Positions 2,541 through 55,632 of a stretch of DNA of 64,000 nt are shown piece by piece. The notes below the pieces were generated by a model that saw only the letters and a list, made by a program, of their open reading frames with translations, had not been told where the DNA came from and searched no databases. The DNA comes from a virus (taxonomy: Duplodnaviria; Caudoviricetes). The position numbers were made by a program, and so were the translations under genes. Position 1 is the first letter of the stretch. Every line of letters starts with the position of its first letter. Where the stretch lies: the IMG/VR virus record IMGVR_UViG_3300031555_004710, positions 128,001 through 192,000 of that record, one strand, 5' to 3'.

Positions 2541-3407
2541 ATGGGTAGATATACTGAAAGAAAAGATCTATATAATCAACCACCATTGTTTAGTGCTGAT
2601 AATAGAGATGAAAATATATTAATTGATATTTTAGGAAATTGGATTCCTGAGTGCGATATTATATATTATGGTCTTCTAAATAGTCACTATTCCGAAGAAT
2701 TATATAAATTAAAGACAACATCAATGTTTAACATTCATGATATATATTTAGATACTTCATATTTTACAGGAGATGATTTAATAAGATATCTGGCATCGAC
2801 TGACGATACTCTTGCAGAATTGAGTGATGAATATATCAGAAATGCGATAGTTACAGCAATTGATAAATATTACTATGTACCTTGTAATGAAACTATGCTT
2901 AGACACGCAATAATTGAATTAGCGTATTCCAACTTTGTAAAGTCTATTACATTACTATATCCATGGGATATTAGAGAGATTGATTATCAATACTTAAAAC
3001 ATATTATCCCATTATCTGTATTGGAAAAATTTAAAATTGTTAGTGGTACAATGTTGGGATTTCTCGAAAGTAAAGCAAATTCAGGTACTAAATATACTAC
3101 AATTATTAGTAATTCTACTGAGGATATTAATACTATGATTGATGAGTGTGATAAGTACCATACAAATGAGTCATTTTTCTTATTACGAAATCATAGTGGG
3201 AATGTCAAACATGAAATACTTGAAGACCCAGAAACACCTGGTAAAAAAATAATCAATTTTGAGGAACTTGAAAATGTTAATATTATCGGTAAATTAATGG
3301 ATATGGAATTAGGAATTCCAAAAACAAAAATGAGATTTGCTAGATATGAACCAAACTTATTTGAGGATACTCAACCAGACCCAGAAAATTTTAAAGTTGG
3401 AAGATAA
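2541..3407 (+). CDS. Hypothetical protein
   Basis: 288-aa ORF with AAGGTAGG RBS. Confidence 0.75.
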   Translation: MGRYTERKDLYNQPPLFSADNRDENILIDILGNWIPECDIIYYGLLNSHYSEELYKLKTTSMFNIHDIYLDTSYFTGDDLIRYLASTDDTLAELSDEYIRNAIVTAIDKYYYVPCNETMLRHAIIELAYSNFVKSITLLYPWDIREIDYQYLKHIIPLSVLEKFKIVSGTMLGFLESKANSGTKYTTIISNSTEDINTMIDECDKYHTNESFFLLRNHSGNVKHEILEDPETPGKKIINFEELENVNIIGKLMDMELGIPKTKMRFARYEPNLFEDTQPDPENFKVGR

Positions 3408-3410
3408 TTT

Positions 3411-5570
3411 ATGAAAGGAGATAATATAATGGATTATATCAAAAGTGCATTATATAATGAAATATTATCTAATAGCAATGTAATTAATGGTAAAGAATAT
3501 AGAGAATTAGTATGCGCTATTTCTCAGGTTGCATCCGATATGGTTGTAAAAACCCTTGGCCCTTATGGCTCTACAACAATGATTGATGAAGGAACTGGAT
3601 TTACATATCCTAGTAAAGATGGATGGTCTTGTTTAAATAAGCTCCAGTTTACTGACCCAACATATAATAGCATATTTAATATGCTGAAGAAGATTAGTTT
3701 TAATAGCGTAACCACCGTAGGTGATGGTACAACTACAGCAATGGTTGCAGCAAATAATTTTCTTCGTCAAATGTATATGGAATTCATTCCAAAAATAGAG
3801 AAAGATGGATTTCGTCAGGCGGACTTTATTGATACGATGAATGAATTCTATACTTATATAGAAAGAGAATTACGAAATAATAAAAATATTCAAAAGATAG
3901 ATGATTCCGGTGATTTTTCGGATATATATCAGATAGCATATGTTGCTACTAATGGAAATCATGAATTTGCCGAAATTATACAAAAGATATATCAAGAGAC
4001 AAATAATCCAAATATTCAGGTAACTCTCGATAAAAACTCTGAGACAACTTATGAAATTCAGCAAGGGTATAAGTTTGATGCAAGAACTTTAAATTATCCA
4101 GCATATGTAAATTGTGATGCTGGTATAATCGATTATAAGAATCATCCATGCAGAGTTGTTATATTTGACCATAACGTAACATTTCAAATGCATGAAAAGA
4201 TTATTGGTGGAATTAGTGGATTTGCTAGTAGAGATAATCTCGAAGTAATTATACTTGCACCATATTTTGATGACATTGTGACATCATGGATCGATTCTAG
4301 CGTGCAGAGAATGGTTCAGAATAGACAAATTCCGAATATAATGTTGGTTCAAATACCTATGACAGCAAATATTCAGAGAAAGTCAATTTCAGATTTATGT
4401 GTATTATCAAATGCTCAAGTATTTGATGAAGCAAAAGTGAAAGCTTTCAACATATTATATCATAATCAGACACACTCTGCTGATGAAAAGATAGAAGATC
4501 CAATGTTTTCTCTTGAACAGTATGCTTTTGAAAGCCCAGAAGAAGTTATTCGTAGATGTATGGGTACAGTTAAGAGCATTACGTTTAATAAAACAGAAGC
4601 ATTTTTACAGGACTATGAAACTGTAGCTAATCCTGTACAGTATAATGCAATAGTTACAGAAGCTAAAGAAGATTATGAAAATATGAAATCTAAAGCTTTA
4701 AAGACTATTGGAGGAATGCTTGATAAAGATTTCTTATTTACTCAAATGCGTTATATAAAACTTAAAGGCTCTACTGGAGTGATTAAGGTTGGTGCATTTT
4801 CTGATATACAGCAGAGATGTGATAAAGATGCATTAGACGATGCAGTATTAGCATGCCGTTCAGCATATGAGAATGGATATGTGCGTGGTATGAACATTGA
4901 ATTATTATCACTTCTTAAAGAGTTGCTAGAAGCATATCATACAAATACAGCACCACTAGCTTATTTTGGTCAGTATTCATATGATGTTTTACAGATGTTA
5001 TATAATTGCTTCTATCTTACATCATTACAAGTTATTATGAATAAAGAACCAAATAACAGTGCTTCAAGATTAGTAACACAGAATGATGCTAATAAAGATG
5101 AAGATATGATACCTATTAGCTACATTAAATGTAATTTAACTAATCCGGAAATATTAGATATGATTATAACTAGCAAAGAATGTTTAGACTATAATCTTCG
5201 TACAGAAGAAATGAATCCTATTGGTAGTTGGGAAGTTATAAATTCTGCTGCTACTGATATTGAAATATTGAGAGCAGTTGTAAATGTACTTACTACAGTA
5301 ATCACCTCTAATCAGTTCTTATCTGTTACACGCAGATTCGATGTAAAGGTTAACAATGAGAGAACTATTCAGAATCGTCTTGAGGAAGATGCTAGATTTA
5401 TTAAGAATAAGGTATCTGCTACAATTGACGCAGTAGTTAATCATCCTGATTATGATTTATTACAGGGACTTATAGGTGGAATCAGTGTTGATGGATTACC
5501 TTTTGAATCATTTGATGGTGAAGTTACTGAACCTACCGAATTCGATAAAAATATTAGTGAAGCTAAATAA
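3411..5570 (+). CDS. groEL: Phage GroEL-like chaperonin
   Basis: KTLGPYG, SKDG, VGDGTTTA ATP-binding motif, GVIKVGA, DALDDAVLACRSA. Likely start 3429 after AAAGGAG. Confidence 0.92.
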   Translation: MKGDNIMDYIKSALYNEILSNSNVINGKEYRELVCAISQVASDMVVKTLGPYGSTTMIDEGTGFTYPSKDGWSCLNKLQFTDPTYNSIFNMLKKISFNSVTTVGDGTTTAMVAANNFLRQMYMEFIPKIEKDGFRQADFIDTMNEFYTYIERELRNNKNIQKIDDSGDFSDIYQIAYVATNGNHEFAEIIQKIYQETNNPNIQVTLDKNSETTYEIQQGYKFDARTLNYPAYVNCDAGIIDYKNHPCRVVIFDHNVTFQMHEKIIGGISGFASRDNLEVIILAPYFDDIVTSWIDSSVQRMVQNRQIPNIMLVQIPMTANIQRKSISDLCVLSNAQVFDEAKVKAFNILYHNQTHSADEKIEDPMFSLEQYAFESPEEVIRRCMGTVKSITFNKTEAFLQDYETVANPVQYNAIVTEAKEDYENMKSKALKTIGGMLDKDFLFTQMRYIKLKGSTGVIKVGAFSDIQQRCDKDALDDAVLACRSAYENGYVRGMNIELLSLLKELLEAYHTNTAPLAYFGQYSYDVLQMLYNCFYLTSLQVIMNKEPNNSASRLVTQNDANKDEDMIPISYIKCNLTNPEILDMIITSKECLDYNLRTEEMNPIGSWEVINSAATDIEILRAVVNVLTTVITSNQFLSVTRRFDVKVNNERTIQNRLEEDARFIKNKVSATIDAVVNHPDYDLLQGLIGGISVDGLPFESFDGEVTEPTEFDKNISEAK

Positions 5571-52936: not shown

Positions 52937-53812
52937 ATGCAAGGGAACATAAAAGGAAAATTTAAAGTAATAACACTTTGCGGTTCAAGTAAATTCAAGA
53001 AAGAATTTATAGAAGTTGCAGAAAAACTTTCATTGGAAGGAAATATTGTAATTTCATTAGGATTATTTGGTCATGCTGATAATAAGTTTGCTACAGTGAT
53101 AACTGATGATGTTAAAGCAATGCTTGACGCAGCGCATAAACAAAAAATTGAAATGTCTGATGCAATTTATGTAATAAATCCAGGAGGATATATAGGAGAC
53201 TCAACTAGAAGTGAAATAGGTTATGCAATTAATCTTGGAAAAGAAGTTCATTTCTTAGAACCAATAAAAAGTATTCAAAAAATCGGTGATATATATAAAG
53301 TTATTACTGATAATGATACTCTTGATTCACCTGGAGATCCTATGAATAATGATATTATTACGTATAAAATAGATGATTTTAAGTATTTTGATGATTTATG
53401 TTCATTCTATAGAAATACACCAAAAGAAGAAGTTATAGATAAAAATCTTTTATTTAGAATAACTGCATCTGGTGGATATGATTATCGTAATAAATATATC
53501 GAAGAAGACGATCTTATAAAACCAATTATTGTAGATGGTTTATTGACTTGGATTAAAATACCATTATCATTTGATGGATTATCATTGTCGACTAGTTTCA
53601 AAGACCTTTGTGAAACATTTAATCCACATATACACATGGCTAAATTTGGTAAAGTTTATCAAATTATAAAGGGTGGAGGAAAAGATTATTATGGTGAGCC
53701 TATAATGGATGGTGATTATTTAACATATCATGATACTAAAAAAGGAGTTTATGCATGGAGTAAACTCCACAGTAAATTATTGGAGGTAATACAAAATGAG
53801 CAAATCAAATAA
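52937..53812 (+). CDS. NDT/DUF4406-like Rossmannoid domain fused to a repeated C-terminal module
   Basis: VITLCGSSKFK...H.QKI.MSDAIYVINPGGYIGDSTRSEI.YA. Confidence 0.65.
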   Translation: MQGNIKGKFKVITLCGSSKFKKEFIEVAEKLSLEGNIVISLGLFGHADNKFATVITDDVKAMLDAAHKQKIEMSDAIYVINPGGYIGDSTRSEIGYAINLGKEVHFLEPIKSIQKIGDIYKVITDNDTLDSPGDPMNNDIITYKIDDFKYFDDLCSFYRNTPKEEVIDKNLLFRITASGGYDYRNKYIEEDDLIKPIIVDGLLTWIKIPLSFDGLSLSTSFKDLCETFNPHIHMAKFGKVYQIIKGGGKDYYGEPIMDGDYLTYHDTKKGVYAWSKLHSKLLEVIQNEQIK

Positions 53813-55086
53813 ATGTAATATAGAATACGTTAGAGTAGAAAAGATACCACTTGACTTAGAGTGTTGGCATGATATTGCTACTGGCAATGGTATTAGACTT
53901 ACTTCAGTTGAATCTTTTGATAAAAAGAATCAGAAGATATATAGAGGGCTTCAGTCAGAATTCTTTGGTTCAGACTTTTCATCAGACTGGGCTTTTAAAG
54001 AAAGATATAGTTGTAAATGTGGAAAATATATGGCTAAAGCATATTCTGGAATGGTATGTGATTTCTGTGGCACTAAAGTAGAATATCACGATATTGACCT
54101 TAAGAAAACTGGATGGGTAATTCTTGATAAGTTCGAAGTTCTTTCTCCTATATATTCGGCAAAACTTACAGAAGCGTTAGGTAAGGCTGATGGAGAATCT
54201 GTACTTAGAATGATACTTAATCGTAGATATCATGAAGAAGGGGTAATTGAGTACTCTGAAAAAGAATTAACAAACATAAAGAAGCATCCATTTTCTCAAA
54301 GAGGTATGCAGTGGCTTAGAGAGAATATAATGGAAGTATTAGACTTCTACGAAAAGAGAAAACCTGGTAAACAAAAACTCTTTGAAGAACTTAGAAATGA
54401 ACAGGCTAATATGTGGACACATTCTATTCCTATTTACAGTTCTCTTTTAAGAACAGAACTTCCTGGAGAAAAAGGTTCTAAAAACTTTAAGCTTAAAGTA
54501 AACACTCATTTCAAATCAATCATTCGATTAGTAAATGCAATTAATGATATAGACCCAGATGATATGGATTATATCACATTAAATTCTATAGATATATATC
54601 TTGCAGGAATTCAAAAAGAAATAGACCAAGTATTTGATGTTACTTTTAAAGACCTTACAGATAAAACTGGTATTATAACAAGTAAGATACTCGGTGGAAG
54701 ATATAACTTTAGTTCAAGAGATATTATAGTTCCTGATAGTGGAACTTTAAGGTCTGATGAAGTTATAATAGGATATATACCATTTCTTGAATTATATAGA
54801 TATGAAATTCAGAATGAATATAGAAAAATACATGGCTGTACTCCAGCACAAGCAAATACTGCTTGGAAAAGAGCGACTAATCATTTCGATCCTAAGATTT
54901 ATGCTATAATAGAGCATATGGTTAATGACCCTGAATATAGAAGATATTTAGGTGTATTGATTAACAGAAATCCTAGTATAAACTATGGATCATTTGATTA
55001 TGTTAAAATCGTTGGTGTTAAGAAAGATATCTCGGATAAAACTCTTACAATACCAACACACATAATAGTTCCAATGAATGCCGACT
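53796..55086 (+). CDS. rpoC: Phage RNA polymerase beta' subunit N-terminal half, exon 1 (join 53796..55086,55414..55589; 488 aa)
   Basis: Zn finger YSCKCG...CDFCGT, ILGGRYNFSSR.IIVP, INRNPS, ending PMNAD+T. Confidence 0.92.
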
Positions 55087-55413
55087 TAACAAATCCGTTG
55101 AGGTCGGGTACAGTAGTAATATTGTACATGTATCTAGGTGAACGCTTAACCAGCGGTGTCTATTCTATAGGCTAACGGTAGAAGTTAGATAAGCATTATA
55201 GATGTCGAATACGCTTCGTAAGAAAAGCTACGGTCCATTTATAATATGGATAGCAGCCAATACCGTGCCAAGCTTCTATATACATATAGTTGAAGGTGTA
55301 GAGACTAATTATTAGGATATATGATGGAAAGCATATATTCGAAGCGCCTAGCTCCTATGTAAATAGGATGAAGATATAGTCCACATATTATTGAAAAATA
55401 GTAATTATTATTG
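55087..55413 (+). mobile_element. Group I self-splicing intron (IA-like, no homing endonuclease), 327 nt
   Basis: 5' exon ends in U paired to IGS (ccgacu/ggucgg); terminal G at 55413; P7 elements GUAGAGACUA and GAAGAUAUAGUCC; P3 cuaggug/cgccuag; GNRA loops; removal restores NADFDGD. Confidence 0.95.
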
Positions 55414-55589
55414 TCGATGGCGATTTGCTTAATGTATTTCGTATTATTGGAATGGATTTCCAGAAACGATTTGAGAAAAATATGAATCCAAGATACAATT
55501 TATTTGTATCCAGAGCAGATGGTAAAGTTAACAAAGAGGTCGTACCAGTTAAGGATGAGCTTGTCTGTTTCTGGGCATTTAATAATTAA
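55414..55589 (+). CDS. rpoC: RNA polymerase beta'-N, exon 2 (not in ORF track)
   Basis: (T)TC GAT GGC GAT... = FDGDLLNVFRIIGMDFQKRFEKNMNPRYNLFVSRADGK...FNN*. Confidence 0.92.
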
Positions 55590-55596
55590 TAAACTA

Positions 55597-55632
55597 ATTT
55601 CCAAGTATGTATTTATTTACATACTTGGAAAT
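55597..55632. terminator. Hairpin after RNAP exon 2
   Basis: atttccaagtatgta...tacatacttggaaat. Confidence 0.7.

Follow-up and report, generated by a model that had tools for sequence, protein, structure and literature searches.

Introns in the polymerase genes of jumbo phages are already known. In phage PhiPA3, a group I intron interrupts gp210, the β subunit gene of the virion RNA polymerase, at the conserved catalytic aspartates (PMC11620839; review PMC12908238). The HNH endonuclease that this intron carries is a nicking enzyme, and its action against a competing phage has been shown (Birkholz et al. 2024, PMC11620839). Introns have also been documented in polymerase genes of Staphylococcus jumbo phages. 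In phage AR9, the annotation gives g270 as two joined pieces with the HNH gene g271 between them, in line with what the earlier note on this locus had stated about RNA polymerase genes of AR9-like phages.

The window analysed here is a 64,000-nucleotide stretch of a virus genome recorded in IMG/VR. Its positions 55087 to 55413 very probably constitute, as read from the sequence, an ORF-less 327-nt group I intron of the IA type that splits the NADFDGD motif of a non-virion RNA polymerase β'-N gene, a selfish mobile element in its endonuclease-free state. The known jumbo-phage cases differ from this one in insertion point, RNA subfamily, endonuclease content and lineage, which here is uncultured. 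Like the PhiPA3 gp210 intron, the window intron belongs to group I and lies at the catalytic aspartates of a jumbo-phage multisubunit polymerase; the PhiPA3 intron, however, sits in the β subunit of the virion polymerase and has an HNH endonuclease, whereas the window intron is endonuclease-free. The AR9 intron interrupts the orthologous gene at the same metal-binding motif (SGDYDGD in AR9) and displays comparable group I features, exon 1 ending in U and the insert in G. By contrast, it is 897 nt long, encodes the HNH endonuclease g271 and is inserted 8 nt downstream of the window site (DYDG|D against NAD F(1/3)|). No similarity was detected between the sequences of these two introns, and the group I covariance model RF00028 gave no match at the AR9 locus at E 0.01.

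The source record is 236.7 kb long, with a G+C content of 29.7% and an estimated completeness of 94%, and the phage is an uncultured gut jumbo phage. The ORF starting at 53796 reads ...IVPMNAD, exon 1 ending in AAT GCC GAC T (N, A, D and the first base of the F codon), and then runs through 29 unrelated codons to a stop at 55175. Exon 1 is matched by phrog_2987, 'RNA polymerase beta subunit', with an E-value of 4.7e-49; in Pfam, neither exon 1 nor the neighbouring ORFs had any match. By tblastn, exon 1 matches β'-N subunits in 93 jumbo-phage records at 20-28% identity, among them phiR1-37 g274, proteins of Staphylococcus phages annotated as non-virion β' subunit and, as the sole AR9 match, g270, annotated as non-virion RNA polymerase β'-N subunit. 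The same genome encodes, outside the window, a second β'-like protein of 977 aa, in which phrog_2986 and phrog_2962 are fused and which is uninterrupted. This gene (G000:C1:203780-206713; L022:1281-4214) has its best full-length matches in Fusobacterium phages of the JD-Fnp series. Since the 977-aa paralog matches the virion-type β' subunits of AR9-like and Staphylococcus phages, the interrupted gene, the only one of its subunit type found in the genome, is assigned to the non-virion (late) polymerase. Judged by homology that includes the NADFDGD loop, and distinct from the virion-type paralog, it is an ortholog of the β'-N subunits of the AR9 gp270 and phiKZ gp55 type.

The frame that resumes at 55414 translates as (F)DGDLLNVFRIIG...WAFNN up to a stop at 55589 and has no start codon of its own at its 5' end. 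Joining 55086 to 55414 brings 1291 and 176 nt together in frame as 488 codons plus a stop; it restores the codons GAC T|TC GAT GGC GAT and yields a product reading ...PMNADFDGDLLNVF...WAFNN*. The intron is inserted after the first base of the Phe codon in NADFDGD, and the predicted ligated junction is GCCGACT|TCGATGGC (GACT|TCGATGG). The C-terminus of the joined protein is colinear, with each conserved position matched, with those of AR9 gp270 (...SGDYDGDVLNIIPVF...ILNN*) and phiR1-37 g274 up to the terminal NN*, and exon 2 is colinear also with the C-terminus of the intron-less relative P0018. The arithmetic and the colinearity thus bear out the earlier proposal of a 488-aa subunit with a restored DFDGD. 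A comparison with intron-less homologs, which had been put forward as a check, gave the same answer, as relative L026 (74% identical in protein) reads AATGCCGACTTCGATGGAGAT, the ligated exons with one wobble base different. Translation of the unspliced RNA allows only a 459-aa product without the three aspartates.

An interrupted reading frame alone could also mark a group II intron, an intein, a translational bypass or two separate genes. The probability that the insert is any of these is, in our judgement, negligible: no other Rfam family matches; an intein is ruled out because the insert contains stops in the exon frame and no ORF; 327 nt far exceeds the known ribosomal hops; and, if there were two genes, the second would begin in mid-codon without a start, leaving a catalytic triad split from its fold and useless.

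The boundaries of the insert, which begins TAACAAATCC and ends ...TTATTG with the G at 55413, are those of a group I intron. At the 5' splice site, U55086 forms a wobble pair with G55102 within P1, as expected for this class, and this U.G pair is retained in the relatives described below. P1 also follows the third base of the Ala codon, the pair at this position being C-G in seven sequences, G-C in one and A-U in one (columns 8-13/68-73 of alignment A1), with the combinations GCC/GGUCGG, GCG/GGUCCG and GCA/GUCUG. The P10 guide is contiguous with the P1 guide, the canonical layout of group I introns, and its seven base pairs with exon 2, together with the terminal G55413, define a 3' splice site of the group I kind. 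Of the 8 relatives whose contig includes the 3' end of the intron, 7 have a G immediately before exon 2; the eighth, L030, is ambiguous. There, the bases ahead of DGD (L030:2840-2900) read ...GAUGAUGAUC GAU GGG GAC, and no G|UC or G|UUC junction gives NADFDGD; either the motif has an Ile residue and the splice site a base other than U, or the 3' terminal base is A. NADIDGD is present in the intact relatives P0081 and P0103. In three other relatives (L029:2526, L032:1528 and L033:2481) the splice point of the homologous intron is shifted upstream by one base (GAU|, with exon 2 beginning UUY GAY GG), and the 5' splice site thus tracks whichever U the Asp and Phe codons provide; the P1 U.G pair is retained in the upstream-spliced L029 and L033.

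The features of the locus are collected in Table 1. P1, P10, P3, P4, P7, the GNRA hairpins P2, P8 and P9 and the terminal G, all proposed from the first inspection of the sequence, were found where they had been placed.

Table 1. Features of the interrupted β'-N gene and of its intron; A1, alignment of the window intron with nine relatives
Feature	Position	Strand	Sequence or pairing	Basis and variation
Exon 1, non-virion RNA polymerase β'-N gene	53796-55086	+		ORF list, phrog_2987, tblastn, splice arithmetic
P1	55081-55107	+	exon CCGACU (55081-55086) with internal guide GGUCGG (55102-55107), 6 bp; loop 55087-55101	
P10 guide	55095-55101	+	CCGUUGA with exon 2 UCGAUGG (55414-55420), 7 pairs, 2 wobble	
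P2 hairpin	55108-55127	+	8 bp, GUAA loop	MFE fold; A1 columns 74-81/86-93, 7 of 8 pairs compensatory
P3, 5' strand	55134-55140	+	CUAGGUG with CGCCUAG (55345-55351); duplex -9.2 kcal/mol	
P3-P4 insertion, hairpin 1	55143-55155	+	CGC(U)-UAACC-(A)GCG	2 of 3 pairs compensatory
P3-P4 insertion, hairpin 2	55158-55172	+	GUCUAU-UCU-AUAGGC	A1 columns 125-131/139-145, 5 compensatory pairs
P4-P5 domain	55175-55266	+		RNAalifold
P4	55175-55180, 55261-55266	+	ACGGUA with UACCGU	invariant in A1
P5	55181-55185, 55213-55217	+	GAAGU with GCUUC	UCAGU/ACUGA in phage G
P5a	about 55193-55206	+		RNAalifold
Extra hairpin between P5' and P4'	55227-55257	+		RNAalifold
P6 with P6a extension	55268-55296	+	CC (55268-55269) with GG (55295-55296)	Rfam alignment
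P7, 5' strand (guanosine-binding helix)	55301-55307	+	G(A)GACUA, bulged A, with UAGUCC (55377-55382)	Rfam alignment
P7-P3' hairpin, P7.2-like	55315-55340	+	9 bp	MFE fold; A1 columns 389-397/406-414 compensatory
P3, 3' strand	55345-55351	+		Rfam alignment
P8 hairpin	55353-55368	+	UCCUAU-GUAA-AUAGGA	Rfam alignment; A1 columns 427-431/449-453 compensatory
J8/7	55369-55376	+	UGAAGAUA	Rfam alignment
P7, 3' strand	55377-55382	+		Rfam alignment
P9 hairpin	55386-55403	+	UAUUAUU-GAAA-AAUAGUA	Rfam model positions 236-253
Tail after P9	to 55413	+	10 nt, ending in the terminal G	sequence
Exon 2	55414-55589	+	TC GAT GGC GAT ... AAT AAT TAA	58 codons and stop
Terminator-like hairpin	55597-55632	+	15 bp, 8 nt past the exon-2 stop	pattern scan, 2 found against 0.5 expected

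RF00028 matches positions 55151-55403 over the full model with 36.4 bits, corresponding to E-values of 1.1e-7 in a search of a 601-nt stretch and 1.0e-8 in a search of the 236.7-kb genome, in which it is the only match. This group I match lies far beyond chance. It is nevertheless below the Rfam gathering score of 50 bits, and no intron match came from scanning the window, either with Rfam at the gathering threshold or over its full length by E-value. The covariance-model search proposed in the earlier note thus succeeded over the full length of the model, though under the cut-off, and the group I call is therefore made to rest on covariation as well. The model misplaces P1 and P4 and scores low because the intron has extra P3-P4 hairpins, a large P5 domain and a hairpin between P5' and P4'. 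The P3-P4 junction of group I introns is usually 3 nt long; in the window intron and its relatives it holds an insertion of about 34 nt with two small hairpins. As a single sequence, the window intron folds unexceptionally (z -1.6).

Ten contigs encoding proteins with the intron-derived tail were retrieved, of which nine gave an alignment with the window (A1, 571 columns). These nine metagenomic relatives have a homologous intron at the same site, with exon identities of 48-89%. In the RNAalifold consensus, which was derived from the same alignment as the pairs counted (in Python), 95.3% of the cells of 77 pairs are canonical and 39 pairs show compensatory double changes; in slid controls, with the partners shifted by 1-3 columns, 35-39% of the cells are canonical and 10-17 pairs show double changes. 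Compensatory double changes, as expected of group I helices, occur in P2, P5, P5a, the P7.2-like hairpin and P8. Hairpin 1 of the P3-P4 insertion changes from G-C to A-U in L027 and from C-G to U-A in L023. P3 was counted separately because it crosses P7: its outer pairs covary in the relatives (CCG/CGG, CUG/CAG), and the helix covaries in other phage introns (CCGGGUG/CGCCCGG, CAUGGUG/CGCCAUG and AUUUGUG/UGCAAAU). P4 reads ACAGUA/UACUGU, again a compensatory change, in related phage DnaE introns (L017, L018). P7, the strands of which are GUAGAGACUA and GAAGAUAUAGUCC in the Rfam alignment, has five invariant pairs in A1, and an extra outer pair (55301/55382) is G-C in five sequences, U-A in three and A-U in one. 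The covariation and the nine relatives add to the RF00028 match in upholding the original proposal of an ORF-less group I intron in NADFDGD.

The window intron is of the IA type, with an extra helix between P7 and P3'. This hairpin had been noticed at the outset, and it carries compensatory changes in A1; the window intron has this one alone, while more distant relatives have two, the additional one being P7.1. Some helices considered during the analysis were discarded. P3 as CGCUUCG/CGAAGCG and a P4 5' strand at 55153-55158 or 55230-55235 were dropped after comparison with the relatives, and an RNAalifold helix at columns 109-114/327-332 was rejected because it conflicts with P6, which carries a compensatory change (C269-G295 becomes U-A in L031).

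The score below the Rfam cut-off and the missing P7.1 hairpin might also be read as signs of decay, the intron being a splicing-dead remnant and the β'-N gene a pseudogene in this assembly. We regard this as highly improbable: no core helix is damaged, and P10, the U.G pair and the terminal G are likewise intact; both exons are open and conserved; at least three further faecal samples yielded contigs with an identical allele; and no other gene of this subunit type was found in the genome.

Outside jumbo-phage polymerase subunits, the closest RNA relatives are the introns in DnaE and DNA polymerase genes of Bacillus phage G, staphylococcal SPbeta-like phages, Mammaliicoccus phage phi116 and Enterocloster phage CB473P1. 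By blastn, the P4-P6 and P8-P7-P9 cores match unannotated gaps in split DnaE, DNA polymerase and NrdE genes of other phages over 43-105 nt, and two of these gaps reach 56-77 bits with RF00028. The P4-P6 core of the four is 71-82% identical to that of the window intron, and they share its layout (P3, AA, a small hairpin, GUGU, a hairpin, GCUA, P4 and a hairpin between P5' and P4'). They differ in their host genes and in having endonuclease ORFs in P6 or P8 in three of the four cases, and they do not align outside the core. RF00028 gave no match at E 0.01-0.1 in the AR9, phage G, Enterocloster, Mammaliicoccus, SPbeta-like and Machias loci, probably owing to ORFs and insertions, and comparison with these introns was therefore made visually and with blastn. 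Four phage members of the window intron's own subfamily (L003, L016, L017 and L018) are among those missed by the model. The ORF-less introns of Flavobacterium phage immuto and Alteromonas phage AD45 share core sequences in P3/J3-4/P4, P6-P7 and J8/7. Their P3-P4-P5 region is compact and they score 56-77 bits with RF00028, whereas the window intron is about 90 nt longer in this region and scores 36 bits.

On the standard group I pathway, the pre-mRNA would fold into P1-P10, and an external guanosine bound in P7 would attack the bond after U55086, positioned by the U.G wobble in P1. The terminal G55413 would then take the place of the guanosine in P7. With exon 2 aligned by P10, exon 1 would be ligated through its free 3'-OH to U55414. 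The expected outcome is the 488-aa subunit with its Mg-binding DFDGD loop intact.

The insert has no sense-strand ORF of 40 aa or more, and hence no endonuclease of its own. The search of the genome for a free-standing homing endonuclease, which the earlier note had called for, was likewise negative: the profiles HNH, HNH_3, GIY-YIG, LAGLIDADG_3 and NUMOD1 found no match, and phmmer with five intron endonucleases of other phages found none among the ORFs of the genome. A LAGLIDADG_1 match at 3006-3173 (+), in the ORF 2541-3407, reaches only 13 bits (E 0.03 for the genome), was not reproduced by hmmscan of the 288-aa ORF and is probably due to chance. The genome contains no second copy of the intron. 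In the relatives L031 and L033, by contrast, the 3' part of the homologous intron contains GIY-YIG homing-endonuclease genes, and the presence of these enzymes in some homologs against none recognisable in the window genome is a new observation. L030 has an HNH_3/NUMOD4-like gene directly downstream of exon 2. In L023 (87% identical), an antisense ORF of at least 194 aa (2845-3429, minus strand) lies in the 3' part of the homologous intron and is cut by the contig end; it matches no Pfam or PHROG family. The C-terminal part of this ORF resembles the DNA-binding tail of intron endonucleases, a resemblance only.

A protein search recovered 248 relatives of the subunit from metagenomes, and the best 120 cluster representatives were compared at the insertion site. 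Fifty-six are intact, some of them 72-75% identical to the window allele. Homology is lost at NAD in 29, 15 of which continue with the tail (G/C)ERLTSGV, the translation of the intron segment GGUGAACGCYUAACCAGCGGUGU; two others in the NAD group stop four residues ahead of NAD. In a further 30, homology ends about 35 codons upstream, at NRNPS, and a few break elsewhere, where some may simply be contig ends. About half of these 120 representative alleles of the gut-phage clade are interrupted, at the window site or at NRNPS, which is also new. The NRNP|S site is occupied by an unrelated group I intron of about 360 nt (RF00028, 56.8 bits) in the IMG/VR relatives L009-L014 (for example L009:3671-4056), and these alleles, of 42-93% identity, keep (G/N)ADFDGD intact.

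The window allele with its intron occurs with zero differences across both junctions in contigs of at least three other faecal/gut metagenomes, and the intron-less joint was not found among the aligned contigs of these metagenomes. Among the public sequencing runs listed as containing this stretch, none is an RNA run. Several other contigs from the same faecal metagenomes agree with the window over the 30-nt P4'/P6 core alone and diverge beyond it (breaks at 55171, 55246-55277 and 55316); related introns are therefore common in these communities. Between relatives, exon identity falls to 51-53% at the nucleotide level, yet the intron cores remain 70-83% identical, and the L024 intron is nearer to the window intron than the L023 intron is, whereas the exons show the reverse. 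This pattern hints at horizontal spread.

In view of the absence of the intron from part of the clade, the GIY-YIG genes in homologs and the lack of an endonuclease in the window genome, the window intron looks like the endonuclease-free stage of the usual homing cycle. The earlier note had held that it is either fixed or mobilised in trans, having no endonuclease of its own; the latter point stands, 'fixed' does not, and the homing-cycle stage describes the situation better. The site behaves as a homing hot spot, which in related phages holds the same intron with a GIY-YIG gene, a different intron or none.

The distribution of the intron bears also on a regulatory role. The earlier note had suggested a GTP/Mg-sensitive checkpoint, in which GTP, Mg or folding would gate the late polymerase and splicing would time the switch from early to late expression. 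Splicing is logically required for an active subunit, and early transcription of the gene may be assumed by analogy with AR9, where the non-virion gene g270 is annotated with an early promoter nearby. However, 56 of the best 120 representative alleles do without the intron, some at 72-75% identity, so that a timing role built into the intron is dispensable; the unrelated introns that the same stretch hosts at other sites, and the versions carrying an endonuclease, are the signature of selfish homing; and neither the sequence nor the comparisons revealed any regulatory feature. We accordingly consider a checkpoint very unlikely and retain the reading of a selfish mobile intron.

A more speculative idea, to which we give limited credence, is that the intron serves as an immunity allele: because endonucleases recognising the uninterrupted site can no longer find their target in the intron-bearing allele, the disrupted NADFDGD target might shield the late-polymerase gene from the GIY-YIG (perhaps HNH) endonucleases carried at this site by related gut jumbo phages. 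If this were true, the dense occupation of these 40 codons (about half of the alleles, at least two sites) would reflect a continuing endonuclease arms race between co-infecting phages and not neutral parasitism.

With this locus, the known use of polymerase catalytic motifs as intron homing sites extends to an uncultured lineage of gut jumbo phages. The finding opens no new mechanism; rather, a single gene family displays all stages, from the empty site through the intron with or without endonuclease to second and third insertion sites. For annotation, the gene needs a two-exon join, as gene callers otherwise give a 459-aa product devoid of the catalytic aspartates, and the public protein collection contains dozens of such truncated calls in this clade.

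Two further genes were noted in the course of the analysis. In the intron-less relative L026, a 72-aa Hfq-family protein (PF17209; L026:3396-3614) is encoded two genes downstream of the β'-N gene. At 3411-5570 (+), the window itself encodes a 719-aa GroEL-like chaperonin (phrog_5725, 7e-67), which Pfam Cpn60_TCP1 matches over residues 42-194 only.
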